Virus record (IMG/VR): IMGVR_UViG_3300024348_000001
Span: 32,001 to 96,000 of that record
Length of the DNA: 64,000 bases
Reading direction: 5' to 3' (one strand)
Origin: a virus
This document shows positions 7,848 through 64,000 of the stretch, piece by piece. The position numbers and the translations under genes are program-made. Each line of letters opens with the position of its first letter. Within the stretch, counting starts at the first letter, position 1. Below the pieces are notes generated by a model. That model was given only the letters and a program-made list of their open reading frames with translations. It did no database searches and was not told where the DNA came from.

Positions 7848-8210
7848 TTATTCAGGCTTCGCTGTTACAGCAAAACCTACGTAAAACCGCATTGTTTGTT
7901 CTTCTGTGTGCACTTGCTGGCCGATAAACAACAACACTTCTTCAAACTGTAAACGCGGCATGTCTTTGTTAAGCTGTCCCAGAAACTGGGTTGCCTTTTC
8001 CATTCCTGCCGCAAGTAGGTACTGCGGTTCAATCGATGGGACACGATAAGCGTGAATTGGAATGCGAGCGTATTCGCCTATCTGCGTATGCCACATTTCA
8101 TCGTTTGCCAAAGCAAACCATGCTTTTTTGTCTCGAGGAACCACCATGACAGGTTGTTCTTTTGTTTGCAGATATGGTTCGACATCAACCCAAACTACAC
8201 TGACGTACAT
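7848..8210 (-). CDS. Hypothetical protein
   Basis: 120 aa ORF in the run. Confidence 0.65.
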   Translation of the reverse strand: MYVSVVWVDVEPYLQTKEQPVMVVPRDKKAWFALANDEMWHTQIGEYARIPIHAYRVPSIEPQYLLAAGMEKATQFLGQLNKDMPRLQFEEVLLFIGQQVHTEEQTMRFYVGFAVTAKPE

Positions 8211-8992
8211 ATCTTAACCTCAGTTTGTTCACCGTTGGCGTAATGCTCAACAGTGTAGACAAAAGATTTGTAAGGACTAGAAATACCGTCGTACCACAGC
8301 GGCCGCATACTCAAACCACGGCGAGGTGCCCGAGATTCCCGGTGATGCTCGTCGGCGTTAATTGCTACGTGCGTATTGTAATGGAACAACCGGTAACTCT
8401 GTTGATAACACAGTTCACCCAGCACTGCATCTCCGCCATTGTGGTGCATATCTGGAAAAGGATAATCGTGTTTTTTTAGTAAATTTAAACGTGTCGCCCA
8501 CCAACCGCCTGTTGCAAATTTTATCGCATATCCCTGTGGCCATTCTTTATTTGTGTACCACGATTGATTTTTAATTACGCATCGTTGGTTGCCGTTCCAC
8601 ATACTTGTTAACCGATACACAGAACCAACCAAATCTGCGTTAATAAGATAAGTGCTTATGTCTTGCCAGAACGTACGCGGCGCTGATTCACGTATAAAAC
8701 TGTCATCGTCAAACCACATCACGTTACGTTGTTGCGGGTCTGCGTATCGCAACATCTGTCGCATCAACGGATATTTGCCAACGTTTTCATGATTGTCGGC
8801 CGCAAAAAGAAGCACGGGAATATTAAATCCCCGTGCTTCTTCCGTTAAATATTCTTGCACATCTTGCGTTACTGCGTTCATCCCTATGCGTAATTCCGAT
8901 ACGCCGGGATATTGCGCACATCGTTTAATTGATGTCAAACAACGCGCAATCAAATCACGATGTTCGCCGTAACACAAGACGCATACAAGCAT
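8195..8992 (-). CDS. GT-A fold (GT2-like) glycosyltransferase
   Basis: VLCYG, KYPLMR, WFDDD and HNGGD motifs; paralog of the C-terminal domain of 55229..57154; start reset to ATG 8992. Confidence 0.7.
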   Translation of the reverse strand: MLVCVLCYGEHRDLIARCLTSIKRCAQYPGVSELRIGMNAVTQDVQEYLTEEARGFNIPVLLFAADNHENVGKYPLMRQMLRYADPQQRNVMWFDDDSFIRESAPRTFWQDISTYLINADLVGSVYRLTSMWNGNQRCVIKNQSWYTNKEWPQGYAIKFATGGWWATRLNLLKKHDYPFPDMHHNGGDAVLGELCYQQSYRLFHYNTHVAINADEHHRESRAPRRGLSMRPLWYDGISSPYKSFVYTVEHYANGEQTEVKICTSV

Positions 8993-8993
8993 G

Positions 8994-9920
8994 TTAAATA
9001 CCGGTTGGCGTCTTCTTGGCCGGGCGACCACGTTTACGTGCCGGCGGTTCTGTGTTACGCACAAAACCAGTTGGCTCAGTCATTTGCTCCGTACGACTGA
9101 CCGGCGTCGTATACTCACGCTCAACTTCAACACCCGCAGCCGGATCGACTTGTGTATCTTTTGCTGCAATGATCCGAGATACACGCTTCTTAATTTCATC
9201 CAAACGTGACACGGCTGTCTGCGCAGCTAAAAGCATATCTTGCAATCTTGCGCCTGTTTCTTGCAAAATGCTGTCCAGATTGTTTGTGACAACGTCTGGC
9301 GAGATTGCGTCTAGCGGATTGAAAATATATTGATCGGCAACTTCATCCATGTAATTGCCAAACTTTGCAGCCAACTTACCAATCTTCGTCACACCCGCTA
9401 CTGGACTGGTTGGACGTCGTACGGGTCGTCCTGCGTTTGAACTACCGCCGGAACGATCCAAAGCGCCCGAGATAACTTCCAACACTTCGTTTGCGGATAG
9501 CCCGTCACGGATAGCTCGTTCAATCATCGATTTCTGCGCAAGCGGATCTTCCAGACGTGCGGCATAAATCCAATGGTACACAGTCAAGGTCTGTCCGGTG
9601 CTCGTCAACTTACCCTGTTGCTCTACCACGTACTGATGGTCAGGAAACGCACGAGCAAAATTCCGATAATCACGCAACGTTGCTGCGCGGACGTTAAGGA
9701 ACGTCTCCAATTTGGCAATAGCATTAGCTCCATAGTAATTGCTGCTATCGTTCAATACGTCGTCCACCATCGCACCAATGCGATAGAAATGGATAACCAT
9801 TTTCTTACTACTGTCCGTCAATTCTTTCTGCAATTTAAGCGCTATTTCTTGCAGCGCTTGCGGCATTTGCGCAAACACTTCGTGCCGCTGAGCAGACATT
9901 GGACCGATCAGATTCGACAT
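8994..9920 (-). CDS. DUF1016-N-like putative DNA-binding protein
   Basis: YRIG..YYGANAIAKL..LRDYRNFARAFP..YHW pattern; C-terminal AT-hook-like KRGRP; start reset to ATG 9920. Confidence 0.55.
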   Translation of the reverse strand: MSNLIGPMSAQRHEVFAQMPQALQEIALKLQKELTDSSKKMVIHFYRIGAMVDDVLNDSSNYYGANAIAKLETFLNVRAATLRDYRNFARAFPDHQYVVEQQGKLTSTGQTLTVYHWIYAARLEDPLAQKSMIERAIRDGLSANEVLEVISGALDRSGGSSNAGRPVRRPTSPVAGVTKIGKLAAKFGNYMDEVADQYIFNPLDAISPDVVTNNLDSILQETGARLQDMLLAAQTAVSRLDEIKKRVSRIIAAKDTQVDPAAGVEVEREYTTPVSRTEQMTEPTGFVRNTEPPARKRGRPAKKTPTGI

Positions 9921-12096: not shown

Positions 12097-13701
12097 TTAT
12101 TTTTTACGAGGCGGTCTTGGCGCAGGACTCTTTGGAGGAGCATTGCGCGCGGACTTTGGTGGCGGAGGCATATCGTCATCATCCTCGCCGTCTTCTTCAA
12201 AATCGTCGTCTTCGGTGGCTTCACCTTCCTCCAAATCATCTTCATCTACAGGCAGTTGTTTACGGACTGGCGCCGACAATTCTGCATCGTCTTCGTCGTC
12301 ATCTTGAACCGCTGGCCGAACCGGAGTCGCTACGACTGCTTCGTCTTCGTCGTCGTCCATAGCGGGCACAGGAATTTTCTTCAGAACTGGCAAATCCAAA
12401 TCGTCATCGTCATCTGTAAACGTTTGATTGTTTGCAGGACGCGCCGGTGCTGCGGGTTTCTTGCTCACAGGCGGCGAGAAATCATCGTCGTCCTCAACTT
12501 CTACCATTGCAGCTTTCTTGGGACGAGGTGCTTCTTCCGCAGCCGGTACGCTACTCTTGGCGTTACCCAAGATCTTGCGCACGTCTGCGGTCATATACTC
12601 GGACCGATCAAACCACGCCCATTCCACCAACTTAGGAATAGAGCGGAACGCCTGTGCAATAATTACACACTTTTCTTCGTTAGACGGGAAGTGCAAGATA
12701 CCTGCATTCACGCCAGACGGAGTCCAGAAGAATGACGATTTAACAACACGTTCAACCTGTTCTGTGGACAGAGATGGTTTAAACTTCTGTCCGCCCACAC
12801 CAAGCACTCGACTAATCGCAAACTCATAACCCGTTGGTTTCTTCGGGTCGATGGTGCCTGACCACGACATGGACAGCCACTGGCTCTTTGGATTAACAGC
12901 GTTCCGTGCCTGAAGCTTGGTTACCTTCGGGTTGAACGCACACACGAAATAGCCACCCGCAACAGTACGGGTGTCGGGATCAAACGTACCGACAGGATCT
13001 CCGTAGAGATACGGTGCGTTGTAATCCACATCTGGATTTCCATCGAACGAATCCGCTGGCGTGTCGAATATATTGAACAAGCTATTTGCCGAGGCAGGTA
13101 GCTGGATCACACACATTGCCTCGCCGGGTGCTTCACCAAGTGCATGTTCACGACCATTGCCGATATGCTCGACATCGCCATTGGCATACACAAAACCCTG
13201 CATGAAGTTCAGGGTAGTGGGTCGCGTGATTGACGCACCCTTGCCAGCAGAACCAACCATCAACTGATTCCAACGAGCATCCCACGAACGGCCGCCGGCA
13301 AACACACCTTCCTTGTGCGCACGGAAACAAGACCAATAGAAATTGGTATACGGCTCGTTACGGCGTGATGCCTCGTCTCCGGGCTGATGCAACAAGATCG
13401 TGTACTTATCGCGATCATCTCCACCGAAATATTTAGCCGCAGGCACGGGAAACATGAAGTGCGAGTAATGCCGCTGCGCAGCACTCTCACGGCCACCTGC
13501 AAGGTTGTTGGGATTGTCGTAATCTCTGCCCGGCACCGGACGGAACAGCAACGGTCCCTTGGTGTAGTTCGGACGGATTAGCTGGAACGGAAGCGAACAA
13601 CGTGGATCCAATGTCTTATCGTCGGGCGGTGCGCTGCTGCGCTTGTCATTGCTACCGTGTGCCCGTGAATCGTAGCTCGGTCTCTGCCATTTATCAGACA
13701 T
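12097..13701 (-). CDS. Putative ssDNA-binding or recombination mediator protein
   Basis: Lies between PolA and RecA; globular core plus about 150 aa D/E/P-rich tail; no diagnostic motif. Confidence 0.45.
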   Translation of the reverse strand: MSDKWQRPSYDSRAHGSNDKRSSAPPDDKTLDPRCSLPFQLIRPNYTKGPLLFRPVPGRDYDNPNNLAGGRESAAQRHYSHFMFPVPAAKYFGGDDRDKYTILLHQPGDEASRRNEPYTNFYWSCFRAHKEGVFAGGRSWDARWNQLMVGSAGKGASITRPTTLNFMQGFVYANGDVEHIGNGREHALGEAPGEAMCVIQLPASANSLFNIFDTPADSFDGNPDVDYNAPYLYGDPVGTFDPDTRTVAGGYFVCAFNPKVTKLQARNAVNPKSQWLSMSWSGTIDPKKPTGYEFAISRVLGVGGQKFKPSLSTEQVERVVKSSFFWTPSGVNAGILHFPSNEEKCVIIAQAFRSIPKLVEWAWFDRSEYMTADVRKILGNAKSSVPAAEEAPRPKKAAMVEVEDDDDFSPPVSKKPAAPARPANNQTFTDDDDDLDLPVLKKIPVPAMDDDEDEAVVATPVRPAVQDDDEDDAELSAPVRKQLPVDEDDLEEGEATEDDDFEEDGEDDDDMPPPPKSARNAPPKSPAPRPPRKK

Positions 13702-28309: not shown

Positions 28310-28483
28310 CTATACGTCAAATAGAACGCGCAACAGCTCTTGCAGTCTGCGCACTTCACTTGCCACTTTGTGTAACTGCTTGATACAACCGACGGCGTCA
28401 AAGCCGTCGATTGTCTTCTTGTCTGTAGACTCTTTAATCAGCGTTTTTGGAAACTTTGCAACGGCGCGGTCCGTAATGTCCAT
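28310..28483 (-). CDS. Small hypothetical protein (57 aa, not in the ORF track)
   Basis: Hand translation MDITDRAVAKF...RVLFDV; fills the gap. Confidence 0.4.
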   Translation of the reverse strand: MDITDRAVAKFPKTLIKESTDKKTIDGFDAVGCIKQLHKVASEVRRLQELLRVLFDV

Positions 28484-28973
28484 TGGTCTGCCTCACCACG
28501 TCAATGATGCGCGTGGTGTGCAACTCACCACACATCTCTATATATTTGACGTTTTGAGCCAACTCTCCAAGCTTACAAGGGCTGTCTCGGTATTCAGCTC
28601 CCTTGACAAACGTCGTAGGTTTAAGCGCCTGCATAACGTCAGGCCACTCATCCGTCGAACCTTCAATGACGTAATCCACAAACTTGCACGCCAACAAAAT
28701 GTCTAATCGTTCGGCAAATGAATAGAAAGGTCTAGAGTCACCTTTTAACTTTTTCACAGACTCATCGGTGTCCAAACCGACAATCAACCGTGCACCCAGA
28801 TAATGTGCTTCACGCAACAAATGCACGTGCCCGGCGTGAAACAAATCAAAGCAACCCACAGTAAAAACTATGGGTTGCGAAAACTCTAGTGCCCGTAACT
28901 GGTTGAATGTTTCTACTTTGGACAAATCCACACCAATCGTAGTAATGTCATACCCGTTACGGAATATTCTCAT
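28434..28973 (-). CDS. Heptose-1-phosphate nucleotidyltransferase-like (HldC / RfaE domain II)
   Basis: GCFDLFHAGH, VGLDTDESVKKLKG..RP, ER...L, VKGAEY and TTRII motifs. Confidence 0.8.
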   Translation of the reverse strand: MRIFRNGYDITTIGVDLSKVETFNQLRALEFSQPIVFTVGCFDLFHAGHVHLLREAHYLGARLIVGLDTDESVKKLKGDSRPFYSFAERLDILLACKFVDYVIEGSTDEWPDVMQALKPTTFVKGAEYRDSPCKLGELAQNVKYIEMCGELHTTRIIDVVRQTNGHYGPRRCKVSKNAD

Positions 28974-30010
28974 TTCAACGCATCCTTGCGAGTTACTGTA
29001 GCTGTACCCGGCGTACGCACAGCTACTCCTGCTGCGCTCTGTGCAAAATCACATGCGGCAACAAACGGCATACCTTCCATCAGGCCCACAGCAAGACCAG
29101 CCAGAAACGTGTCGCCCGCTCCGCAAACGTCTGTCAGATTGGGGAGCAAATGCTTATACGGTGGAGGTGCGTAAATAAAATCACCGTCACACGTTGCGTA
29201 ACCCTTATCGCCAAACGTGATAACCAAACGTTTAAACAATACACCGTGACCTGCCACTTGCTGATTAAACACGTCATACACAGCGCGGTACACCAGTTCG
29301 GGTTCTGCATCAGGCGCAATAGGCTGTTCAGCAAACGCCAAATACTCCCGAGCCTGCCGTTCGTTAAACTTAAAAATCGTATCTTTAGAGCCCCACGCCT
29401 GCCAGTTAGAAAGGCGTCTGCCCGGGATATGTCTGCCCGGATCCACAATCAGTAATTTACCTTCAGCCGCAGCCACAATGCGCGCCCTGACATCCCCAGC
29501 CCGAGGTTCTAGACCAAAGAACCCCTTGTGGTAATCAGACACCACAAACACATCAACGTTACTGGGCCACTTCAGATCGTTGCCTGCTTCTTCGCTTCCA
29601 ATCAGGTTGACACTAGACGTCAGCCAGTGGTCATAAGGATCTACATCAAACCGGGTTATCCTTGGGCTCATCGTTTGCGTGATGTCGTTGTTTGTGATCC
29701 TGCATTTAATTACAGGTCGAACGCGCGTAGACGACACAATAGGCGTAACTCCTGCCAGTAACAACTGCTCACGCACAATGGCATAATCATCGCCACGAGC
29801 ACCTGCCGTATACAACGTTACAGCATTATCGTTCGGGCCAAACTTGCTTAGCGATTGCACATTCACTGCTACATTGGCTGCGCCGCCGGGAGTCGTGTGT
29901 CGAAAAGATACATTGGCTTTTAACGTCCCCGGCTGTTCGTAATTGTCTTTTACACTGTTAATTGTCAAATGACGGTCAATAATCGTGTCACCAAATACAG
30001 CGATGTTCAC
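28970..30010 (-). CDS. Heptose-7-phosphate kinase-like PfkB protein (HldA / RfaE domain I)
   Basis: GGAANVAVN, SDYHKG, VDP and DVCGAGDTF motifs; 4-nt overlap with the nucleotidyltransferase. Confidence 0.8.
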   Translation of the reverse strand: MNIAVFGDTIIDRHLTINSVKDNYEQPGTLKANVSFRHTTPGGAANVAVNVQSLSKFGPNDNAVTLYTAGARGDDYAIVREQLLLAGVTPIVSSTRVRPVIKCRITNNDITQTMSPRITRFDVDPYDHWLTSSVNLIGSEEAGNDLKWPSNVDVFVVSDYHKGFFGLEPRAGDVRARIVAAAEGKLLIVDPGRHIPGRRLSNWQAWGSKDTIFKFNERQAREYLAFAEQPIAPDAEPELVYRAVYDVFNQQVAGHGVLFKRLVITFGDKGYATCDGDFIYAPPPYKHLLPNLTDVCGAGDTFLAGLAVGLMEGMPFVAACDFAQSAAGVAVRTPGTATVTRKDALK

Positions 30011-53578: not shown

Positions 53579-53606
53579 ATGATAAGTTCCCCAAATAAAT
53601 TGTCAA
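53579..53606 (-). promoter_or_regulatory. Sigma70-type promoter
   Basis: TTGACA (53606-53601), 16-nt spacer, TATCAT (53584-53579). Confidence 0.6.
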
Positions 53607-53661
53607 GCACGGTACTGCGTTTGAGCGCAATACCGTGCTTGGAATCAATTTATTTGGGGAA
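53587..53661. repeat. Long nested inverted repeat
   Basis: Perfect 16-bp outer arms (53587-53602/53646-53661) and 11-bp inner arms (53604-53614/53631-53641). Confidence 0.9.
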
Positions 53662-53668
53662 ACTCATT

Positions 53669-54019
53669 TTATTGTCTTCGGCGATATAGGGCGCCACGCA
53701 AGTGTAGCGTGGTGCCCAGAGCGATGATCTCAAGCAAGTGGACTAATTGTCCACAGCCTTGTTGCACTAGGCCATAGCCTAGTGCATAGATGATTAGCAT
53801 CGTAAACCAAATCCCAAATCCGCTGACTGGGACTTGTTCTACATCCGGTCCAAAATTTACGTTTATCGGGGCCGGGGTGTAGTTATACACCACCGACGGA
53901 GTTGTCGGTGGTGTTGCGATGATAATATCGTCATGAACTGGTGGCTTCTGTGCCACCGCTTTTGTCGGCTCCTCGATTAGATCGAGGAAGTTGAAACTCC
54001 TGCGAGGCACAATGGCCAT
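53669..54019 (-). CDS. Pro-rich membrane protein
   Basis: AGGAGG RBS; two C-terminal hydrophobic segments. Confidence 0.6.
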   Translation of the reverse strand: MAIVPRRSFNFLDLIEEPTKAVAQKPPVHDDIIIATPPTTPSVVYNYTPAPINVNFGPDVEQVPVSGFGIWFTMLIIYALGYGLVQQGCGQLVHLLEIIALGTTLHLRGALYRRRQ

Positions 54020-54096: not shown

Positions 54097-54408
54097 TTAA
54101 AATACCAGCGTAAGGATTTTACCGTCGCCAGAACGGTATGTAATTCTTAACTCTTTCGTGTTAAGCATTTCCTTAAGTTTACGTTTACGCTCACTGTCCA
54201 ATCCTGCCACAGATTTTTTAGCTGCTGCAAAAACATTCGCTGTTTTATTTCGGTTGCATCCACCGCAACCACCACGAGGAACGGTTCTTAATTGCTGCAA
54301 GAATGGAAACTCTTGTACAAACGCGTCATTAGCAGCCATAGAGGCTAAAGTGCTGTCTTCTATAACAACCATTTTTTTGCGGTTATCTGTAGACATACCA
54401 CACCTCAC
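54097..54408 (-). CDS. Small basic protein with CxxC
   Basis: GGCGGC motif; coupled to the upstream gene. Confidence 0.65.
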   Translation of the reverse strand: MRCGMSTDNRKKMVVIEDSTLASMAANDAFVQEFPFLQQLRTVPRGGCGGCNRNKTANVFAAAKKSVAGLDSERKRKLKEMLNTKELRITYRSGDGKILTLVF

Positions 54409-54869: not shown

Positions 54870-55229
54870 CTAGAAACGCAACACGCGCGAATTGTTTTCG
54901 GCATCTTTATAATACAACACCACCTCACGAATTTCCTGTTTGAGTCTTGCGCAGAAATATTGCTTTAACGGTTGAAGCACATCGGGATCTACGCGGTAAA
55001 CGGCATGTAACTGTTTACCTAAAGCGTTAACAGATTTATCCAATGCTTGTCGAATTGTTGTGCAACCGCTACAAGGATCTTCTTCCTGTCCCATGGCAAT
55101 ACGCAAAGCTCGGGCGTGACTTTCTTTACAAGGCTCCACTAAAGGCTCAAAACCGGGTGGCAGAGTTTTATAAAAATTGTCGTCACCAAACATTTGATAA
55201 AAGTGTGTTGTGTTTAATACAAGTTGCAT
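54870..55229 (-). CDS. Hypothetical protein with CxxC
   Basis: CSGC; TAATG coupling to the GT gene. Confidence 0.65.
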   Translation of the reverse strand: MQLVLNTTHFYQMFGDDNFYKTLPPGFEPLVEPCKESHARALRIAMGQEEDPCSGCTTIRQALDKSVNALGKQLHAVYRVDPDVLQPLKQYFCARLKQEIREVVLYYKDAENNSRVLRF

Positions 55230-57154
55230 TATTTACGCCCCCACGGAAAAGTTTCAGAAAAACCGCGACGTCCGCCTTTATCTTTGGGCGGGCACCAGAC
55301 GTATTTCTTTCCTGCATTGAAGTCTTTGATTTTACCACCAAGCTGATGTACTTGCGCACCTATGGTAATATCTCCGCCGTTGTGATTAAGCCTAACGTCG
55401 GGAATGTTAGCTTGCTTCATAGTTTCAGTTGCCAGTGCCCAAAAATAACCCACGGCAAAATCTACACAAGAACCGTTAGATGCCAGCATTTGTTTATTCG
55501 ACAGCCTCAAGTGTACGTTTCTAAACCAGTCGCTTTGGCGGAACCATAAGTCAGGTCTGTGTCCGCCGATAGCCATGGCGCTTAGATCGTGATACATCTT
55601 GGTACCGTACAACCGACAACCTTCTCGATGATTCAAGTTAATTGTTTCGGCTAGACGCGCTGCCCACATGGAATCAATAATTTTCGTGTCGTCATCAAAC
55701 CAAACAAGATATGGCGTAGTGACAGGACAACTTGGATCGTGGAACATTTCACGCATGACTGGATACTTTTTGGCATTGTCTTCGTGATGGTAGATTTTTG
55801 TAACGACGGGTCCAAGCGACGCCACAAAATCGTACGTAGCTCGAGATACGGCATTTAAACCGACACGTAGATCTATGCGTCTGCGGGGCAACGTTTTGAG
55901 AATGCCTTCAATGCAAGTTTTAGCTAACTCAGTGTGATCGCCGTAGCAGAGAACAAAGATTGTAAACTTGCCACCGATGTAAGGATTGTCCATAACTCCA
56001 AACAGATCAAATTCGGTTTCCTGTGATAGGTCATGTTTTTCAGGAGGAGGGGGCGCAGTCTTAACAGTCACCACGGTTGTCACGGGTTTTAGGATATCCA
56101 ACGTAGTGGCTGTTTGACTGACATTTTTAACAGGAAGAACATTTTCTAGTGAATATTTACGGGATGGCTGCGAAATAGGAGGTAGAGTCCCGTCTTCGTA
56201 ATATTCCATGACTTTCTCCACCACATGATCTACAGTGATACGGTTTAAGCATTCAGGCACCGGTTGTTCGTCGGTACGTACAGGATGCAGACATAACTGT
56301 AATTTTGCTTTGCTGTTTGTTAAATCCATTTGATCAATAGGCACGGTTCGTTTTTTCCAGCACCCCGACGTTTTACAACAATCCATTTGACCTATCGTGT
56401 GCAAAAACTTATGCGGCACTTTAACGGGAGCGCATGTGTCGGGGAATTGACCGTGATTGGAGTAACCTTCCCACCACCACTCTTCGCGTCCTCCCGCCAA
56501 CACAACGCATGGCTTGTCGAACACGGCGGCGATATGCATAAACGATGTGATGCCGCAGATGACACCTTCAGCGTGGTAGATCAATCTAAACAAGTCGGCA
56601 ATGTCATCCGTAGATCCAACCATGTATTTCACGTTGTTAAGCACAGGATGGACGTTGCGCGTAAAGGCTGCTCCTGCTTGTACGCAATTAATGCCATACT
56701 TGAGTAACGTATCTACAACGCCTTGAAATCTGGAAGGCAACCACCATTTGGCTGTCATATCTACTTTGCCACCACCAACGACAACCCAGTATCTACCCGC
56801 AACTAATTTTTCTTCTTTGTTGGGACCGAGAAAAATTTCGCCTTTAGGATGCAGCACAGGAACGTCAATACCTGTGCGTTGTTTCCATTTCTTATGGAAG
56901 AATGATACGAAATGCTGTTTGACGCCTGATACCGATTCACGAATGCCGTCGTCGTATTCCATTTGAATGACAGGAGCATTTAGCTTGGGATCTAAAGGGT
57001 AGACGTAAGGAAAGTACCGCCAGTAAGACGAATAACTTCCTGCCATAGAAATGCGGTATTTACCGGGATACGTCAGATTCAAATCTCTAACAACCGCTGA
57101 CAAGGCCACGGTGTCACCCAAGGCCCAACGATTATGAATGACGTAAGGTTGCAT
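55229..57154 (-). CDS. GT9 (heptosyltransferase-like) - GT2 fusion glycosyltransferase
   Basis: N-terminal ALGD, KWW..RF, ITSFMHIAA.F.KP.V.L.GG, Cys motif CC...GCW..C..EC..IT; C-terminal WFDDD and HNGGD. Confidence 0.8.
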   Translation of the reverse strand: MQPYVIHNRWALGDTVALSAVVRDLNLTYPGKYRISMAGSYSSYWRYFPYVYPLDPKLNAPVIQMEYDDGIRESVSGVKQHFVSFFHKKWKQRTGIDVPVLHPKGEIFLGPNKEEKLVAGRYWVVVGGGKVDMTAKWWLPSRFQGVVDTLLKYGINCVQAGAAFTRNVHPVLNNVKYMVGSTDDIADLFRLIYHAEGVICGITSFMHIAAVFDKPCVVLAGGREEWWWEGYSNHGQFPDTCAPVKVPHKFLHTIGQMDCCKTSGCWKKRTVPIDQMDLTNSKAKLQLCLHPVRTDEQPVPECLNRITVDHVVEKVMEYYEDGTLPPISQPSRKYSLENVLPVKNVSQTATTLDILKPVTTVVTVKTAPPPPEKHDLSQETEFDLFGVMDNPYIGGKFTIFVLCYGDHTELAKTCIEGILKTLPRRRIDLRVGLNAVSRATYDFVASLGPVVTKIYHHEDNAKKYPVMREMFHDPSCPVTTPYLVWFDDDTKIIDSMWAARLAETINLNHREGCRLYGTKMYHDLSAMAIGGHRPDLWFRQSDWFRNVHLRLSNKQMLASNGSCVDFAVGYFWALATETMKQANIPDVRLNHNGGDITIGAQVHQLGGKIKDFNAGKKYVWCPPKDKGGRRGFSETFPWGRK

Positions 57155-57165
57155 GGGGAACTCTG

Positions 57166-57175
57166 TAAGTACTTA
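57166..57175 (-). promoter_or_regulatory. TAAGTACTTA palindromic motif
   Basis: Intergenic; 11 nt upstream of ATG 57154. Confidence 0.55.
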
Positions 57176-57230
57176 TGCTTAGTCATGTAAGTTTAGGGTA
57201 AATTTTTTCTAATGCAATTTCAACGGCTAA

Positions 57231-57791
57231 TTAATCATTTGACGGGTGTCGCTGCAACACGGTTAAGCCGTTATTGACATTGGTGTGGTAACAGACAGAC
57301 CATTCTGTGTGTTGACGACAAAAATCCGATATTGCTTGCTGTAAACCTTGAGGACCATTGCTAAAGCCCGATTCGTCGGTCTTTCCAAACGTATGCGTAT
57401 CGTGCATGATTATGCACCCACCTTGGTTTACGTTTGTGTGGTGTCGCATTAATTCGGCGTACAGTTGCGCGTAATTGTGCAAAGTGTCGATAAACAACAA
57501 GTCTGTGTCAGCAATGGTGATAGAAAGCGTGTTACCGACACAGCCAGAAAAATCAACGTTTAGTTCTTTTGCAATTCGTGCGTGTTCAGAAAAATAACAC
57601 GGGAAAATGTCGTAAGACACTAATGTTTTAGGTATTGTTGCAAGTAACGCCCACGTCGATACGCCGGTACGAAAACCAAACTCTGTGACGTGTTTGCACT
57701 TCTTCGCAAAACTGTAAAGCGTTTGAATGTGTTCAGACACGTCAGACGGCGTGTTTATTGCATCAAAAAAATAATCAGTTATATTTTTCAT
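57231..57791 (-). CDS. Class I SAM-dependent methyltransferase (Methyltransf_24-like)
   Basis: EFG.RTG.ST, DLLFIDTLH and IMHDT motifs. Confidence 0.8.
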   Translation of the reverse strand: MKNITDYFFDAINTPSDVSEHIQTLYSFAKKCKHVTEFGFRTGVSTWALLATIPKTLVSYDIFPCYFSEHARIAKELNVDFSGCVGNTLSITIADTDLLFIDTLHNYAQLYAELMRHHTNVNQGGCIIMHDTHTFGKTDESGFSNGPQGLQQAISDFCRQHTEWSVCYHTNVNNGLTVLQRHPSND

Positions 57792-58510
57792 ACTGGAATG
57801 TAATCCGCGTAATTGTATTTCCAGTGCGGGTTTAATTTAATGTCGCCTACGGGCATACTTCCTGATTTTATGTTGTCACTTACGACACTTGCAGCTAACT
57901 GCGATACGTCACCAGTGCCCCATCCCGATGCATGATAGTTGTTTGCCGTACCCCAGCGATAAATGTAAAATCGATCTTTTTCCGGTATGTCTTTACTAAA
58001 AGCACCAAACACATGCACAAGCCTACCAATAAGCTGCGCATCAATTGTTCCAGTGTCTTTGTGTTCTTCGTACTGACCTATTTCTTCAAAAATACAACGC
58101 CGAATTAGTAAATTACATTGAAATAAATTTCTAGTTTTAGTTATATGCTGATGTGCTTCTTCAATATAGGCCATTGCGGTGTGAAACAAACCTGCGGGAT
58201 TCAAATTTTGCTGCTGCACTGTTAGTTTGTTTTTTAGGTAAATATCGTCGTCTTCCCACGGCGTAATGTACTCGCCAGAACACAACGCAACGGTAGTATT
58301 AAACTTTTTGCCTAGCGGTATAATTCTTTCCTTAGTATTAACGATTACTACCTCAGGATGCTCAAATATTAGTGTTTGTTCTGCGCAATCGTTGACAATT
58401 ACAAGTTCTTTTTCTCCAGCGTAATCTTGCTGAAGAAACGAATGGATTGCCTCTTCCAACAAAAAAGGTCGGCCGTACGTAGCGCAAAAACAAGATATTT
58501 TTGGTAACAC
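57788..58510 (-). CDS. GT2 glycosyltransferase
   Basis: CATYGR..LEEAI.SFL.QDY..ELVIVND; WEDDD. Confidence 0.85.
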   Translation of the reverse strand: MLPKISCFCATYGRPFLLEEAIHSFLQQDYAGEKELVIVNDCAEQTLIFEHPEVVIVNTKERIIPLGKKFNTTVALCSGEYITPWEDDDIYLKNKLTVQQQNLNPAGLFHTAMAYIEEAHQHITKTRNLFQCNLLIRRCIFEEIGQYEEHKDTGTIDAQLIGRLVHVFGAFSKDIPEKDRFYIYRWGTANNYHASGWGTGDVSQLAASVVSDNIKSGSMPVGDIKLNPHWKYNYADYIPV

Positions 58511-58525
58511 GAGTTTTTCCTTAAA

Positions 58526-59392
58526 TTAGTCGTGGGCTTTAATAGTTACAGCGTTATCGTAATTACGGGTAAATATATCTGGATAAATTTCTGTTAAACC
58601 TTGCTCTGCTATAGTTCTTTGTTCCAACGGTAATTTTCGGCCAAAATATTCACGTAATTGCGGAACATTCCAACCCATCTCATAGCCAGCAATTAAATAA
58701 TTATGGAATTTATCGTTAAGTGTTAAATTGTACGGGACGGCGCCAAATCTTGGAAAACGATGACACCACCCAAGCCACGGCTGATACATGACACGTCCGC
58801 CTTGTTTGCGCACCTTATCGTGAATATAAATTTCTTCCCCGGCAAATCCTTTAAAATGTTGCGAAAAAGCTGGCCATTTATCTTTTTGCATAAACATAAG
58901 GGCGCTGCCGTGTGCTAAAACTTCACGCGGCGTATCACCGGTATGCTGATTGTTTACAAACCACGTACCATAAAAATCACCACGTAATTCTGGGGCAAGC
59001 TCTGTTGCAATGATCGCATTTGCTTCGGAACGCAATGGTCCTACCCACATGTCGTGTCCTACTTCGCCTGAACGTGCAGCCGCAACAAGTCGTGCGATAG
59101 CGTTCGGCGCAAGTAAAACGTGACAATCTACGAGAAGAACGTGCGTACCCGTAGCGTGTTCCCAAACACTATTTTTTGCGTGTGCCGGTCCTCTATTTTT
59201 AGGCGCATGCACGTAACGAGCTTGAGCGTTAGCGCAAACATTTTTTATTTCACCGCGTCCTGCTATTGGATGATCGTCAACGACCAGCAATTCCACGCCA
59301 GTAAGATCGTGATGCATGCGGAGCGAAGATAATGTCCACCACACGCCTTGTGGATCGTCGAATGTAGCCATGCCCACTGTCAAGTTATACAT
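58526..59392 (-). CDS. GT2 glycosyltransferase
   Basis: VGMATFDD, LVVDD, G.A.AKN, VDCH and F.GFAGEE motifs. Confidence 0.8.
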   Translation of the reverse strand: MYNLTVGMATFDDPQGVWWTLSSLRMHHDLTGVELLVVDDHPIAGRGEIKNVCANAQARYVHAPKNRGPAHAKNSVWEHATGTHVLLVDCHVLLAPNAIARLVAAARSGEVGHDMWVGPLRSEANAIIATELAPELRGDFYGTWFVNNQHTGDTPREVLAHGSALMFMQKDKWPAFSQHFKGFAGEEIYIHDKVRKQGGRVMYQPWLGWCHRFPRFGAVPYNLTLNDKFHNYLIAGYEMGWNVPQLREYFGRKLPLEQRTIAEQGLTEIYPDIFTRNYDNAVTIKAHD

Positions 59393-59828
59393 TTTCTACT
59401 CTCGGGGTGTAGTCGTCGCACGCAATGCAATTGCGTACTGCGGTATCCCGAGATGATATACGGCACTGGCTATGAAGGCTACATGAGTGTAAAATTGCCA
59501 AAGATCCGCCGCATCCACACGACGGTTTTTCTTCAAGTGCCGCGCCTAAATGCTGACACGGAGAAGCCATGTGCAGTTTTATTTTGCGCAACATCGCCAT
59601 TTGTTCGTCAGTGGGTTGCGCGCCGCGATTCGGTGGCGGCGTTGCACCCGTTGTAACAATTTCAGTTGTAGTTGTGTCAGGATCACCGCCCCAAAACGTG
59701 CGATACCGCGCATCATGCTCGTACAGCCAGCAAACTCGGCATCCATCGCGAGAAGGAAAGTGTTTACAGGGTTTCATTCTGTCACCGTCCAATACACTCT
59801 TCCAGTACCTGTGGCTCCGTATTTCCAA
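59385..59828 (-). CDS. Small Cys-rich protein
   Basis: PCKH..CRVC and PCQH..CGC..C..H..C..CIAC. Confidence 0.65.
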   Translation of the reverse strand: MEIRSHRYWKSVLDGDRMKPCKHFPSRDGCRVCWLYEHDARYRTFWGGDPDTTTTEIVTTGATPPPNRGAQPTDEQMAMLRKIKLHMASPCQHLGAALEEKPSCGCGGSLAILHSCSLHSQCRISSRDTAVRNCIACDDYTPRVENV

Positions 59829-62119
59829 CGAAAGCCTGAGTCGTTGTAAGACGCATAATAAGTACCTAAAAGGTCATCACGTGGATTTTCAAAATTTGGC
59901 GTTACTGGACTACTACCGGTAATAATAAAAGGATTACACGAATCTAGCGGGCATGTTGGGCCAAGATTCAGGGTGCCGCTTTGGCCTGAGTCGGGCAGTA
60001 CACCGTCACCCCACCCGGGATACGGCCAACACGGAGTTCCTACTCCTCCATTTGCAACGGAAAGCCAGTGCGGATTACCAAAACTTTTTAAACTTTGAGG
60101 TTCACAACAAAAGTACCCGGTGCCCAGCATGCCGCCAAGCGTCATAGCTACCTCATATGTGGGTAACGAATAATACATATATGAAGGATCAGTTTCGAGA
60201 CCAAGGCCTCTTAACCCAGTATATTTACCGGCATTACGTCCTTTACACATGCAATCCGTCGCATGATCGTAATAACCCGACCCTGTCCCCTCAGGCCCTC
60301 TGTGTGGGTATAGCCTCGACACTGAAACTCTAGCGCTGAAATACAAATCAGGATCAATATCTGCACTTGTAGTAGTACTTGATCCGTACAATAAACCATG
60401 TTTATGTTTGGGACAACGTGTGTGAAAGTAATCGTAATACACTCCCGGAATATAAGAAACTGTACCGTCACACGGAGGAATTCTTACGCTACCAGTGCCT
60501 ATAATGTAATCTACTAATCCAGTTGTTACATTACCGTAATCAACACGTCTAGTGCGTTCTATTCTGGTGTCAAGCACAACAGAAAATCCATCAATACAGG
60601 GCATAACATTTTCAGGATCGCTAAACGTAATGGTTAATGTACGTGGAAAATAAGTCAATCCTTGTTCACACCAAAGCGGAATAGCTCGTTTTTTACAATC
60701 GGAGCATGCGGTTGTAATTATGCACGGAGCCGTTGTAATTTGTCCGTCGTAAGTACCATCGTGGTCAGGATATCCGCAAAAACATCCATTTTGATCTACA
60801 TACTGATAATAAGGATAAGGATCTGCTTGTACTAAGTCATATTTGCCATAATCACAGCGATCCAGTCCGTATTTTAACCATTTTGCACTTGTAGCGTTCC
60901 ATTGCCAAGAACATGACTCTCTGCATACCTTTGGACCTCGTGTTGTTGTTGTTGTTGTTGTTGGCAATACTATAGAATTAGATACACAATAAAGATAACA
61001 ACGTCTTATCATGTAGTCAGCACTATCGTATATACGGTATTCACCGTTGTCTGGGTCGTATGCTTCATAACTATAATTAAGGACGCCTTGGCTGCCATCA
61101 CTTGTTACTGAAGAAGCGCGACAACCCGTAGGACAAAACGACTGAACAACTATATTATTTGGTGATTGCCCGTAATCCCAAATAGAATAACCAGCACACG
61201 GTGCCGTCGTGGTCGTAGTAGCCGTTGTGCTAGTTGTAGTTACGCCGGGAGCTCCAGTTGTTGTTGTGGAGGTTGTTGTTGTAGGTACGCAAGCGACGCG
61301 TATTTCTTGTCCGGCAAATGCTCCGGGATTAGGTGGACGTTCTGGGCAACCGCACGGACCAGAACAAGTTGTATAGCCTTGTGACCACGTATTGGATATT
61401 GTCCACACCCACGTGCAGAATCCGGCACACGGTCCCGCCGTAGTAGTAGTTGTTGTAGTGGTCGTTGGTGGCGTGTTGCTACAAGATAAAATTGCTGCTC
61501 CGCCTATAATTGTACCGGAATACGCAGGCGGTCCCGGGCAATAACAACCTGCGAAACAATCAGATGCTAGTAAACGCCATCCGTCTGACTCCCACAAATA
61601 TAGGCAAGAACTAGCACAGGCCGCAGGTGTCGTTGTTGTACTTGTTGTTGATGAGCTTGATGTTGTCGTACTTGTTGACGCTGGTGTGTTTACACGGCAA
61701 AACGTATAATACGTATCACCCTTTTCAAATTCTGATAGTGGAGGCGCATCGCCACATACACAATCTTCGCCTTCGCACGCGTTATCAATTAATACCCATC
61801 CAGAACTTTCATACGACCACGAGTAAATGCAACTACCAGCACACGGTGTAGTAGTTGTAGTTGTCGTTGATGTCGTACTAGAAGTTGTTGACGTTGAACT
61901 GGTGGTACTTGAAGTTGTTGTCGGTGCTGTTGTTGATGATGAACTGGTGGTACTTGAAGTTGTTGTCGGTGCTGTTGTTGATGATGAACTGGTGGTACTT
62001 GAAGTTGTTGGTGCCGTGGTCGAGCTGGTGGAGCTGCTCGTGCTCGAGGTCGTCGATGACGAGCTACTAGACGAGCTACTACTCGACGTGCTCGAGGTCG
62101 TTGGCGGCATCGTGCTCAT
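59774..62119 (-). CDS. Mucin-like Thr/Ser-rich protein with repeated Cys/Trp domains, putative virion surface protein
   Basis: About 90 aa S/T tract, then about five C-x3-C-x-(W/Y)-x-W modules separated by poly-Thr linkers; no signal peptide. Confidence 0.8.
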   Translation of the reverse strand: MSTMPPTTSSTSSSSSSSSSSSTTSSTSSSTSSTTAPTTSSTTSSSSTTAPTTTSSTTSSSSTTAPTTTSSTTSSTSTTSSTTSTTTTTTTPCAGSCIYSWSYESSGWVLIDNACEGEDCVCGDAPPLSEFEKGDTYYTFCRVNTPASTSTTTSSSSTTSTTTTPAACASSCLYLWESDGWRLLASDCFAGCYCPGPPAYSGTIIGGAAILSCSNTPPTTTTTTTTTAGPCAGFCTWVWTISNTWSQGYTTCSGPCGCPERPPNPGAFAGQEIRVACVPTTTTSTTTTGAPGVTTTSTTATTTTTAPCAGYSIWDYGQSPNNIVVQSFCPTGCRASSVTSDGSQGVLNYSYEAYDPDNGEYRIYDSADYMIRRCYLYCVSNSIVLPTTTTTTTRGPKVCRESCSWQWNATSAKWLKYGLDRCDYGKYDLVQADPYPYYQYVDQNGCFCGYPDHDGTYDGQITTAPCIITTACSDCKKRAIPLWCEQGLTYFPRTLTITFSDPENVMPCIDGFSVVLDTRIERTRRVDYGNVTTGLVDYIIGTGSVRIPPCDGTVSYIPGVYYDYFHTRCPKHKHGLLYGSSTTTSADIDPDLYFSARVSVSRLYPHRGPEGTGSGYYDHATDCMCKGRNAGKYTGLRGLGLETDPSYMYYSLPTYEVAMTLGGMLGTGYFCCEPQSLKSFGNPHWLSVANGGVGTPCWPYPGWGDGVLPDSGQSGTLNLGPTCPLDSCNPFIITGSSPVTPNFENPRDDLLGTYYASYNDSGFRWKYGATGTGRVYWTVTE
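61896..62010. repeat. 45-bp tandem repeat (about 2.5 copies)
   Basis: GAACTGGTGGTACTTGAAGTTGTTGTCGGTGCTGTTGTTGATGAT at 61896 and 61941, partial copy at 61986. Confidence 0.9.
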
Positions 62120-64000
62120 TATACACCACCCGTCGAGGTCGTGCTGGTTGTTGTCGGACCAGCCGTGCTAGTTGTTGTAGTAGTAACACACAGGTACCCG
62201 TACGGTATACACACGGTAAGAAATTCCGGCGTAAAAATACCATTAAAACAAGATATACCTGATACAAAATCAAAAGTTAATATGGCAGGCGGTGGTGTTG
62301 TTGTAGTACGCGTATATTGAATTAAATATATAGGCACACTGTTATTATACAAGGTTCCGCTATAATAACCTAAATAACGCCCGGGTATAACAGTGTTAGT
62401 AATCACATTTAAAATTTTAATAGGACGCCAGTCTATGAACCCGCCGTTAAATCTTTGTACGTATCCGTCGTACAGACCGGCACTACCGCCTTCGTTAAAA
62501 GGGGAAAGCGTAGTTACCCGCACGGCTTGTGTAAAAGATTTACTTTCGACGGTGTACAAATAATCATTTATAGGTTGTCCGCTGCCGTACAAACTAAGAC
62601 TACCAGAACCGACAGAGCCACTAAAACGACCAAAATATATTTTTTGGTCTTCTAGCGGCAAATTATTACTGTCTTTTATTTTAATATCGTAAGTTTCTTC
62701 AAAAGAATCTGTATCGTTGTTGTAATTTAAAAGATATCCGGGGTAATTATTATTTTCGTCAACGTCATAGTAGCTAACTTTTACGCAAGCTACGTCATCA
62801 CGGGTGCGTACTAGATATACAGATTTTCCTGAACTTTCTTTTCCGCCAAAACTACCGATATATATTTTTTTTAACAATGGCGCGTAGTCAACATCGTAAA
62901 CCGTTACTTCAGTTGGACTTGCAACGGTAAAACCATTAGTTGTCGGATTAAATGTTAAAAGGTTTGCACGATAATGTCCAAACGCGTTAGGCGTCGTACT
63001 TATAACCTGCACTAAAACACCACCACTACCACTACCACTACCACCACCGCCACCGCCGGGACTAGCACCGTAAATAGGAGTACCGCCACCGCCGGGACCG
63101 CCGCCGCCAACAAAACCGACTAATACACCAACATACGTTTGAACGGAAAGCTCCGTACCTCCAAATGTTGGCTGTATTTCTATGTAATTCAAATCGACGT
63201 AAGTATTAGACGCGGGATCGTATGCAATAATGTAACCCGGATAATTGCCGTTAATCGTAAGCGTAGTACTAGAAACTCTTATCATGTAGACAACAGAACT
63301 GGGTTCGGGCAAAGACAATTCTAAGCGGGCTTCAAATTGAAAAATGCAGTTTGTTGTATTGTTTACGGTTAAATAAATTTTTCCTGTGGGTGTTGCGGTT
63401 GCTTCAGCCGCAGTAAATTCAACGTCAGTACCGTCTTCTGACAATGACGTCAGCGCAGGACAACAAGTCACAATGTCCAAATCAGCCTTAAATTCATATG
63501 AACAGTCTTCAGTGTTTTCAACTGTTAGATAAATGGTGCCTGTGGTTAGTTCACCGTCAATGCCACGCTCTACATAAACGTCTATACCATCGTCGTTAAG
63601 TGACGTCATTTCGGCGCAGGGTAAATCTAGTTCAAGATCCGCCGCAAATTCAAACGTACAGTCTTCGGTATTTTCAACAGTTAGATAAATAGTACCGGTA
63701 GGCGCCGTATCCCCAACTGCGGGCGATCCATTGCGCGTAAGAGTAACGCTTGTACCGGCGTCGGACAACGACAAGCATGCAGGACAACTAAACGTAAAAT
63801 CTAAGGCCACATCAAAGTCGTAACTACAGTTATCTGAAGGCTCTGCTGTCAGATAAATAGTGCCCGTCGGTAATTTACCTGCAATACCCTGTGAAATTTC
63901 AATTGCAGCGCCCGCAGACGTTACAGCTGTCATAATTGGACAGGGTAAGGCTAAGTCCACGTTTACGTCGAAATCAAAGCTGCAATCTTCTGCGGTATTG
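62119..64000 (-). CDS. Repeat-rich acidic putative fiber or decoration protein (5' partial)
   Basis: Frame is open past 63960 to the window edge and continues the repeat (NTAEDCSFDFDV); TG.IYLT..N...C repeats. Confidence 0.8.
   Translation of the reverse strand, partial: NTAEDCSFDFDVNVDLALPCPIMTAVTSAGAAIEISQGIAGKLPTGTIYLTAEPSDNCSYDFDVALDFTFSCPACLSLSDAGTSVTLTRNGSPAVGDTAPTGTIYLTVENTEDCTFEFAADLELDLPCAEMTSLNDDGIDVYVERGIDGELTTGTIYLTVENTEDCSYEFKADLDIVTCCPALTSLSEDGTDVEFTAAEATATPTGKIYLTVNNTTNCIFQFEARLELSLPEPSSVVYMIRVSSTTLTINGNYPGYIIAYDPASNTYVDLNYIEIQPTFGGTELSVQTYVGVLVGFVGGGGPGGGGTPIYGASPGGGGGGSGSGSGGVLVQVISTTPNAFGHYRANLLTFNPTTNGFTVASPTEVTVYDVDYAPLLKKIYIGSFGGKESSGKSVYLVRTRDDVACVKVSYYDVDENNNYPGYLLNYNNDTDSFEETYDIKIKDSNNLPLEDQKIYFGRFSGSVGSGSLSLYGSGQPINDYLYTVESKSFTQAVRVTTLSPFNEGGSAGLYDGYVQRFNGGFIDWRPIKILNVITNTVIPGRYLGYYSGTLYNNSVPIYLIQYTRTTTTPPPAILTFDFVSGISCFNGIFTPEFLTVCIPYGYLCVTTTTTSTAGPTTTSTTSTGGV

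Follow-up and report, generated by a model that had tools for sequence, protein, structure and literature searches.

Two separable modules of mucin-like fibre proteins and candidate glycosylation enzymes at the end of a phage tail-fibre operon

Why should the tail-fibre operon of a large phage end in a series of glycosyltransferases? This question is raised by a 64,000-nt window (bases 32001-96000 of the 186 kb IMG/VR virus record IMGVR_UViG_3300024348_000001) from an uncultured ~190 kb phage with an estimated genome completeness of 86%. On its minus strand, a repeat fibre protein and a mucin-like protein rich in Ser, Thr and Cys are accompanied by two family 2 glycosyltransferases (GT2a and GT2b), a methyltransferase and a fusion of a GT9-like with a GT-A domain. 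A first-pass annotation had read this block as a single system that decorates surface proteins of the virion with heptose supplied by the phage itself. We favour, with a probability of about 0.52, a modified reading, in which the operon end combines fibre proteins with enzymes that would glycosylate them in the cytoplasm of the infected cell, in two layers taken jointly: a horizontally exchanged cassette and a conserved fusion enzyme. According to open reading frame (ORF) and profile searches, all block genes listed by the annotation were present on the minus strand where it had placed them; the repeat protein, likewise recognized, runs beyond the window end. The features of the block are as follows.

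62119..64000, continuing to window-equivalent 65421 (genome 94119-97421), minus strand: P0005, repeat fibre protein of 1100 aa, 3' part
57179..62588, minus strand: 5.4-kb cassette with the fibre tip and its poly-Thr tail, P0002, P0004, GT2a, GT2b and the methyltransferase
59774..62119, minus strand: P0002, Ser/Thr- and Cys-rich protein of 781 aa, its start overlapping the P0005 stop
59385..59777, minus strand: P0004, 10-Cys protein of 130 aa with two Cys clusters, its ATG overlapping the P0002 stop
58526..59392, minus strand: GT2a, GT-A glycosyltransferase of 288 aa (PF00535, E 3e-11)
57788..58510, minus strand: GT2b, GT-A glycosyltransferase of 240 aa (PF00535, E 4.5e-7)
57231..57791, minus strand: S-adenosylmethionine (SAM) methyltransferase of 186 aa (Methyltransf_24, E 1.8e-6)
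57166..57175, minus strand: palindrome TAAGTACTTA, 11 nt upstream of the ATG of the fusion, just inside the conserved flank
55229-57154, minus strand: P0001, GT9-like/GT-A fusion of 641 aa
54405-54860, minus strand: 151-aa partner of the fusion, homologue in 15/16 viral loci
54097-54408, minus strand: 103-aa partner of the fusion, homologue in 16/16 viral loci
53604..53641, minus strand: terminator-like hairpin with a 16-bp stem, ending the fibre/transferase transcription unit

The division into two layers became apparent from a relative, L004. Its fusion is 99.7% identical (640/641, tblastn), and collinearity with the window extends to either side of it. Using blastn, homology to L004 ended at 62589, inside the fibre gene (residue ~945), and returned at 57178, 24 nt before the ATG of the fusion, which defines window positions 57179-62588 as a cassette. 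Its flanks are 90-98% identical in L004, and the fibre proteins of the two phages share 81% identity up to the break. At the cassette site, L004 contains 3.2 kb of unrelated ORFs (151, 361 and 511 aa), in which no Pfam family, poly-Thr, GT2 or methyltransferase was detected. The cassette has the same GC content as its flanks (0.445), and its transfer was, therefore, not recent.

The same gene set exists in small siphoviruses, where GT2a homologues (53-78% identity) were identified at 36 viral loci and the set lies after the tape-measure gene. For example, L031 encodes an HK97-type capsid, head-tail adaptor, Neck1, major tail protein, tape measure and a 299-aa protein, followed by a 184-aa homologue of the last P0005 domain with identical Cys element and poly-Thr end, a poly-Thr/hyper-Cys protein starting with the P0002 leader MSTMPPTTSS, a P0004 homologue, GT2a, five other genes, GT2b and the methyltransferase. 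Two of the genes between GT2a and GT2b in this locus encode a papain-family peptidase (C1; L031:11778-12674) and an HNH nuclease (12982-13332). The window cassette comprises just the shared genes, without the five that separate GT2a from GT2b in the siphovirus. Counting only loci with enough flanking DNA, the poly-Thr/Cys protein was present in 24/24, P0004 in 29/31 (53-69% identical and directly upstream of GT2a), GT2b in 27/28 and the methyltransferase in 26/28, while the GT9 fusion was found in 0/36. This synteny, with the intervening genes missing from the window, provides the strongest argument for a joint function of the six genes and for assigning the Thr-rich proteins to the tail tip. 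The block is thus an evolutionary mosaic of two separable layers rather than one system.

Two expectations of the first-pass annotation are strengthened by these comparisons. Its Thr-rich proteins occupy the gene position of virion (tail-fibre or tail-tip) proteins in two unrelated phage backbones, and glycosyltransferases and a methyltransferase are co-inherited with them, both in the L004 swap and in the siphovirus loci. The best-conserved DNA of the cassette is the junction of fibre tail and P0002 leader (window 61992-62184 versus L031:8346-8538, 88% over 193 nt), although the siphovirus genome has a GC content of 0.54 against 0.445 in the cassette. This junction may be a recombination handle or may be constrained for coupled translation.

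Both candidate acceptors carry long Thr-rich segments. P0005 consists of ~11-12 copies of a 52-aa two-Cys repeat, four copies of a ~60-120-aa domain and the poly-Thr tail. P0002, with 30% Ser+Thr and 42 Cys, comprises an S/T leader (residues 5-92, ~90 aa), five Cys modules, the first three of which share the six-Cys spacing C-x3-C-x17-C-x4-C-x-C-x18-C, and a C-terminal region of ~310 aa. Between the modules lie linkers of 10-29 residues, composed largely of Thr or Ser (poly-Thr). These poly-S/T tracts are encoded with all four Thr and all six Ser codons, which argues for maintenance at the protein level instead of slippage repeats. Among genome ORFs of at least 70 aa, long S/T tracts of this kind were confined to P0002, with one 10-residue tract in a 76-aa ORF. 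No signal peptide or hydrophobic segment was found in P0002 or P0005.

Close homologues of P0002 numbered three among 5.8 billion proteins, with one more retrieved in an exhaustive search of 1.8 billion representatives. An exhaustive HMMER search with P0002 returned its own cluster plus P0129 and nothing else, and a metagenome scan yielded only two short contigs. Pfam, PHROG and viral contig searches gave no match, and the ESM Atlas no usable one. All homologues keep the linkers and modules and differ in module number and C-terminal region, a pattern typical of receptor-binding proteins. This variable region ends in ...YGAT.G..Y.T.TE and was modelled by AlphaFold2 (AF2) with a predicted local distance difference test score (pLDDT) of 41. 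P0002 is probably a distal fibre or receptor-binding protein.

Regarding the cassette enzymes, GT2a features VDCH in the DxD position and GT2b DDD at residue 87. The best matches of both are weak and belong to enzymes of lipid-linked glycans (PglI, WcaA), and the methyltransferase shows a weak CmcI/rhamnosyl O-methyltransferase match. P0004 is a conserved partner of the transferases. Its C-half is found again immediately upstream of the GT9 fusion in L004 and L006 and beside a GT9-like gene in the Planctomycetaceae locus L077; an Atlas search produced matches below a meaningful score. Neither a transmembrane (TM) helix nor a signal peptide was detected in the block enzymes, all of which are predicted to be soluble, and no flippase, ligase or membrane component of the Gtr type was found. 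Such a set of enzymes fits direct glycosylation of proteins in the cytoplasm.

The genes also appear to form a compact transcription unit. From 64000 to 53600 on the minus strand, ORFs are closely packed, with stop and start codons overlapping or nearly abutting through the block, in the order 3' part of the repeat protein, P0002, P0004, GT2a, GT2b, Methyltransf_24 and 641-aa fusion. Downstream of the fusion follow small ORFs of 119, 151, 103 and 116 aa. Overlaps such as TAATG at the P0005 stop/P0002 start and ATGA at the P0002 stop/P0004 start translationally couple the genes. Upstream lies a Baseplate_J/wedge gene, separated from the repeat fibre gene by ten ORFs without family match. A series of fibre ORFs runs from there up to P0005 and P0002, so that the tail-fibre module ends with the block, at the 3' end of the operon. 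Up to the hairpin at 53641-53604, no strong-stem terminator-like site was detected along the block on the minus strand (best, 6 pairs). Given the overlapping or abutting codons, the proposal of one operon is, therefore, tenable for transcription, but evolutionarily the unit is a mosaic. A sigma70-like promoter (11/12 matches) follows just after the 53641-53604 hairpin; counts of promoter-like and terminator-like sites equaled shuffle levels, and this pair at 53.6 kb was the sole outlier. The sole membrane-like protein of the unit is the 116-aa product of its final gene (53669-54019), ahead of the terminator, with one TM-like segment.

What, then, is the fusion that remains when the cassette is exchanged? 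Its parts, all on the minus strand, are as follows.

56162..57154, minus strand: GT9-like GT-B domain, residues 1-331 (PF01075 and fold)
56012-56161, minus strand: linker predicted by AF2 to be disordered, 50 aa, residues 332-381
55232..56011, minus strand: GT-A domain, residues 382-641 (fold; invariant DDD487-489)

The AF2 model, built on a 43-sequence alignment, reached a pLDDT of 88.8. The N-terminal half matched PF01075 only marginally (22.7 bits with a cut-off of 22.0, E 7e-5), while most homologues of the fusion have a precomputed PF01075 match. Searched against PDB sequences (E<=1), the family profile retrieved WaaF/WaaC at E 0.003-0.005 and PnsB1 but not TibC. In fold comparisons, the N-terminal half scored a VIA Z of 23.5 with 3tov (265 aa, 2.8 A), 21.7 with WaaF (1psw), 20.9 with TibC and 19.2-19.9 with WaaC, values that are effectively tied. 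The modelled fold clearly assigns this half to GT9. For the C-terminal half, no Pfam match was obtained. Its predicted GT-A fold, with VIA Z of 15-18 to 6p61, BcsA, HAS, GalNAc-T2, TarS/TarP and SpsA, is best called GT-A, with likeness to GT2, GT27 and GT-A enzymes. A stand-alone 289-aa paralogue of this domain (30% identical) is encoded in the replication-gene region of the window (ORF 8195-9064, match 8375-8989).

In characterized GT9 enzymes such as WaaC, the catalytic Asp13 is located in the first loop, Lys192 binds phosphate and Asp261 contacts the heptose within a D-T/S-G-x-x-H motif. We assessed the corresponding residues in 53 clade members, comprising 43 phage sequences and ten further homologues. 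Invariant positions are D14, K130, K136, T203, M206, H207, GGRE221-224, C216, C259, C265, C288 and C302, with exceptions among the ten further homologues of one R at 136 and one V at 288 (D14, 10/10; K136, 9/10). Within the 43 phage sequences, G13-D14 is invariant and C200 nearly so (42/43). In the HMMER alignment to WaaC, K136 corresponds to K192, T203 to T262 and H207 to H266; D14 corresponds to Asp13 by position and structural range only. The position of WaaC Asp261 is occupied by Val or Ile in 53/53. The resulting clade signature consists of C-[GP]-[VI]-T-x-x-M-H, GGRE and C259/C265/C288/C302. This Cys cluster, encoded at 56249-56380, lies in a confidently modelled C-lobe insert and confirms the Cys segment that the annotation had pointed out, being invariant in the 43 phage homologues. 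The kinship to TibC/Aah that it had read from the segment is not supported, as no sequence match was detectable, the beta-barrel is missing and the Cys spacing is different. Because Asp261 is replaced in addition, we treat the GT9 half as a distinct GT9-like clade, predicted to be neither a WaaC/WaaF orthologue nor a member of the bacterial autotransporter heptosyltransferases (BAHTs).

The fusion has ~600 full-length homologues (44-56% identity), many on 180-240 kb contigs, and it closes the fibre module in 16 viral loci. Loci hosting it range in GC content from 0.42 to 0.61. In most of the 16 loci, the genes of the 151-aa and 103-aa partners immediately adjoin it; L065, L070 and L081 encode the two partners as well. 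Distant relatives of the 151-aa partner have a variable N-terminal poly-Ser stretch of ~7-30 residues; in the phage studied here, this stretch is absent and the C-terminus is Ser-rich instead. The 151-aa partner could be an acceptor or an adaptor. Ahead of the fusion there are often genes for hyper-Cys proteins, such as one of 273 aa with 37 Cys and one of 478 aa with 53 Cys, or for other transferases and methyltransferases. In fibre modules of three distant relatives, the genes just upstream of the fusion (L007:2705-3526, L010:8204-9640 and L015:3511-4350) encode hyper-Cys proteins with 34-53 Cys in 273-478 aa and a common C-terminus. In two Aquaspirillum metagenome-assembled genome (MAG) contigs (L070 and L081, GC ~0.6), the GT9 and GT-A halves are separate genes, located near genes for Cys-rich proteins, a collagen-like fibre and a GT25-like protein. 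The fusion is, thus, not obligatory.

Whether the GT9-like domain uses heptose was suggested by two further genes of the window, which the annotation had assigned to heptose biosynthesis.

28970-30010, minus strand: PfkB kinase (HldA-like), best match rfaE domain I
28434-28973, minus strand: adenylyltransferase (HldC-like), best match rfaE domain II

The best matches of this split HldE-like pair agree with the assignment, but its NCBIfam scores remain far below the equivalog cut-offs (rfaE_dom_I, 85.7 bits with a cut-off of 345; rfaE_dom_II, 111.5 bits with a cut-off of 181.5). In addition, phrog_7878 was matched at E 5e-30. No match to SIS_2/GmhA, GmhB or an HldD-type epimerase was detected in the 86%-complete genome, so that the host would have to supply the remaining steps to ADP-heptose. 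One relative of 97% identity also has the pair, but it is absent from fusion-carrying relatives of 88% and 92% completeness, as well as from two siphovirus records. This patchy occurrence marks it as an accessory of the phage's own sub-lineage, and the notion of a phage that makes its own heptose donor is not supported in its original form. The gene content is compatible with the pair feeding the GT9 domain but not with a requirement for it, and heptose use by the domain is plausible.

Additional evidence on the clade comes from bacteria. Stand-alone GT9-like homologues (30-43% identity) were located on large contigs of Planctomycetota and Verrucomicrobiota MAGs. On a 484 kb contig of a Planctomycetaceae MAG (L077, 5001-10712), four adjacent genes encode a fusion of GT9-like, GT9 and Methyltransf_24 domains, a sulfotransferase, a bifunctional PfkB-cytidylyltransferase (HldE-like) and a 114-aa Cys protein homologous to P0004. 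The bifunctional enzyme lies one gene from the GT9-like gene, and its C-half is 40% identical to the adenylyltransferase of the window. An integrase-like ORF is located upstream of this cluster, and sulfotransferase genes also occur near GT9-like genes in L075 and L076. On a Verrucomicrobiaceae MAG contig (L078, 4177-8123), one gene joins a GT9-like domain to an Erv1/Alr sulfhydryl oxidase, directly after a gene for a 262-aa, 21-Cys protein with a long poly-Ser/Gly tail. This arrangement hints that the clade may mature disulfide-rich secreted or fibre proteins. Erv1/Alr was not found in the phage studied here or in five related records, in a search without a positive control. Although each is a single locus, L077 and L078 appear, independently of our phage, to tie the clade to an HldE-type enzyme, a methyltransferase and P0004-like and Cys/Ser-rich proteins. 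The link of GT9 with heptose synthesis and a methyltransferase drawn by the annotation recurs, together with the 10-Cys protein, in one Planctomycetaceae locus. It is conceivable, although less likely than not, that the Cys4 GT9-like clade represents a new family of enzymes that glycosylate proteins in the cytoplasm, perhaps with heptose, and that parallel the BAHTs while being separate from them. Their substrates would be extracellular fibre proteins rich in Cys and Ser/Thr, both in hundreds of large phages from the environment and in Planctomycetota/Verrucomicrobiota, and some lineages would have an HldE-type enzyme dedicated to supplying the donor. On this view, tail fibres with mucin-like O-glycosylation would be a trait that is common among phages and exchanged horizontally.

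Combining these data, we propose the following mechanism. In the exchanged cassette, the fibre tip and P0002 bear long poly-Thr/Ser linkers between small Cys-rich modules, onto which GT2a and GT2b would directly transfer sugars from nucleotide donors. The methyltransferase would cap the glycan and P0004 assist. The distal fibre so formed would be mucin-like, stiff and resistant to proteases, and its receptor-binding end would be variable. The second layer, conserved in the phage lineage and not part of the cassette, would consist of the fusion and its two small partners. The fusion most likely glycosylates proteins of the fibre module generally, many of them Cys-rich; its GT-B half may use ADP-heptose, boosted in this phage by the HldA/HldC-like enzymes, and its GT-A half may add a second sugar. 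The analysis itself shows gene content, folds, conserved residues, synteny, the limits of the cassette and co-inheritance, whereas fibre proteins as acceptors, the identity of the sugar and a role in shielding or adhesion are inferred.

Direct cytoplasmic glycosylation of the fibre is favoured by the combination of soluble enzymes, a late structural operon, an exact swap and synteny in two backbones. Several observations weigh against it. The case rests wholly on association, and no glycan has been observed. Most of the 36 siphovirus loci are close kin (GT2a ~72% identical) and represent, therefore, only ~4-5 independent lineages. In L081, GT2a-like and GT2b-like genes stand directly upstream of the GT9 gene without a poly-Thr protein. 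The GT-A domain of the fusion resembles, in the fold search, lipid-, polysaccharide- and peptide/protein-directed enzymes equally. As to the sugar, the Val/Ile at the heptose-binding Asp261 position throughout the clade means that the donor may not be heptose, and the HldA/C-like pair is missing from the relatives listed above. In seroconverting phages, receptor-binding proteins co-vary with receptor-modifying enzymes too, so that co-inheritance is also compatible with a target on the host surface. The main explanation outside the virion builds on this point: the transferases would remodel lipopolysaccharide (LPS), capsule or another envelope glycan of the host for superinfection exclusion or release of progeny from debris, travelling with fibre genes since both match the same receptor, and the poly-Thr linkers would be plain flexible spacers. 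Characterized GT9 enzymes act mostly on the LPS core, the family profile matches WaaF/WaaC and not TibC, and the weak relationships of GT2a and GT2b to PglI and WcaA point in the same direction. This explanation is nevertheless improbable, as membrane-spanning Gtr-type components, flippase and ligase were not found and the genes lie inside a late structural operon. Lysogeny genes were not noticed among the annotated large ORFs of the window, although no search was aimed at them. Moreover, the fusion has long been kept across fibre modules of very different hosts (GC 0.42 to 0.61), and the upkeep of pure S/T tracts of 10-90 residues on an exposed fibre would go unexplained.

A single integrated pathway, close to the original proposal, would have GT9 prime the poly-Thr linkers with heptose from phage-synthesized ADP-heptose, GT-A and GT2 enzymes extend the chain and the methyltransferase cap it. 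All genes are co-directional and closely coupled in this phage, the C-lobe of the clade has a Cys4 insert as in TibC, L077 clusters GT9-like, HldE-like, Methyltransf_24 and P0004-like components, and the neighborhood of GT2a-like, GT2b-like and GT9 genes in L081 would also suit it. Against this stands the distribution: the expected co-occurrence of hld, GT9 and mucin genes across phages failed when examined, since the 36 loci with the poly-Thr module lack GT9, and L004 and distant relatives carry the fusion without poly-Thr proteins. With the HldA/C-like pair also lacking in near-complete fusion-carrying relatives and the heptose-binding Asp of WaaC not conserved, we regard such a pathway as unlikely. 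Very improbable is a role unrelated to fibres, in which the enzymes would glycosylate DNA, small molecules or other virion parts (capsid) and their adjacency to fibre genes would be incidental. Four or more additional GT2 genes, clustered elsewhere in the genome, indicate that glycan chemistry is not confined to the fibre, but the fibre-tip adjacency is repeated in two unrelated backbones and the swap boundaries are exact.

These four further GT2 matches form a separate cluster at genome 4-8 kb and 21 kb, outside the window, and bring the GT domains in the phage to at least eight. Family searches placed a PolA-UDG fusion, SbcCD-like genes and the large terminase among the large ORFs of the window, in which no tRNA genes were detected. 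Neither at the DNA nor at the protein level did cultured-phage records match the block, the fusion or its GT-A half; GT2a was matched at 22% only, and the nearest cultured TerL, from Salmonella phage Arash, is 30% identical. None of nine block proteins had a match in PHROGs, and literature searches retrieved no account of a phage GT9 or of fibre glycosylation of this kind. A paper on ‘Moraphage’ (PMC12619734) proved inapplicable, as it concerns another lineage, without RNA polymerase and with a family B polymerase.

If the two-layer reading is true, the locus offers a concrete case of a phage fibre whose receptor-binding end would be mucin-like and sugar-coated, and siphoviruses and ~190 kb phages would exchange the acceptor and its enzymes as a single cassette. 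The glycans of fibres would then be a neglected factor in host range, in the stability of particles and in evasion of proteases or anti-phage lectins. A family of ~600 GT9-like/GT-A members would gain a function. The recognition of two separable modules in place of a single system also changes which genes belong together in testing.

How does this locus relate to known systems? Virion glycosylation by phage-encoded enzymes has, to our knowledge, been shown only for capsid and tail-tube proteins of mycobacteriophages, and we know of protein heptosylation only for autotransporter adhesins. Seroconverting transferases of the GtrABC type, which temperate phages encode, reside in the membrane and have O-antigen as their target. 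With these, our enzymes share a phage origin and linkage to receptor-binding genes but differ in being predicted soluble and belonging to a late structural operon. WaaC, WaaF and the Veillonella GT9 (PDB 2h1h, 1psw and 3tov) are the best fold matches (Z 19-23.5, PF01075), and WaaC shares the correspondences Asp14/Asp13, Lys136/Lys192, Thr203/Thr262 and His207/His266. The P0001 clade differs by Val/Ile in place of Asp261, an N-lobe shorter by ~55 residues and the Cys4 insert, and P0001 belongs to a phage fibre operon rather than an LPS core cluster.

TibC and AAH are cytoplasmic enzymes that O-heptosylate Ser in extracellular adhesins and require an N-terminal beta-barrel for activity (TibC residues 1-97); TibC additionally features a four-Cys iron finger in the C-lobe (Cys 339/342/358/370), a thumb in the form of a beta-hairpin, and a dodecameric ring (PMC4358343). 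P0001 resembles TibC in its GT-B core (VIA Z 20.9 over 266 residues) and in four conserved Cys in a C-lobe insertion, which in P0001 is a modelled one. However, residue 1 of P0001 aligns to residue 96 of TibC and neither P0001 nor its homologues have an extra N-terminal domain; the Cys spacing is x5/x22/x13 versus x2/x15/x11 in TibC, no sequence-level match was obtained at E<=1, and P0001 is fused to a GT-A domain. With O-glycosylated Ser/Thr-rich linkers, of mucin type or as described for disordered regions of streptococcal membrane proteins (PMC12041528), the phage proteins share long, pure Ser/Thr tracts between folded modules and dedicated GT-A genes nearby. Those systems act outside the cytoplasm or in the secretory pathway, while a phage fibre needs cytoplasmic modification before assembly.

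A further parallel is the glycosylation of mycobacteriophage virions, in which the acceptors are reportedly C-termini of capsid and tail-tube subunits in actinobacteriophages and the glycans were detected by mass spectrometry (Freeman et al. 2023, Cell Host Microbe, via PMC12619734). Both cases involve soluble glycosyltransferases, encoded by the phage among or next to structural genes, that are presumed to modify virion proteins in the cytoplasm at extensions containing Ser/Thr. In the phage studied here, co-inherited with the enzymes, the candidate acceptors are instead poly-Thr linkers of fibre-tip proteins, and the enzymes are a GT9-like/GT-A fusion, two GT2s and a Methyltransf_24 protein. 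Phage virion glycosylation and protein heptosylation are, thus, already known in kind. New are the mucin-like fibre-tip linkers as candidate acceptor, the traded cassette of acceptor plus enzymes, and a large GT9-like clade tied to fibre modules.

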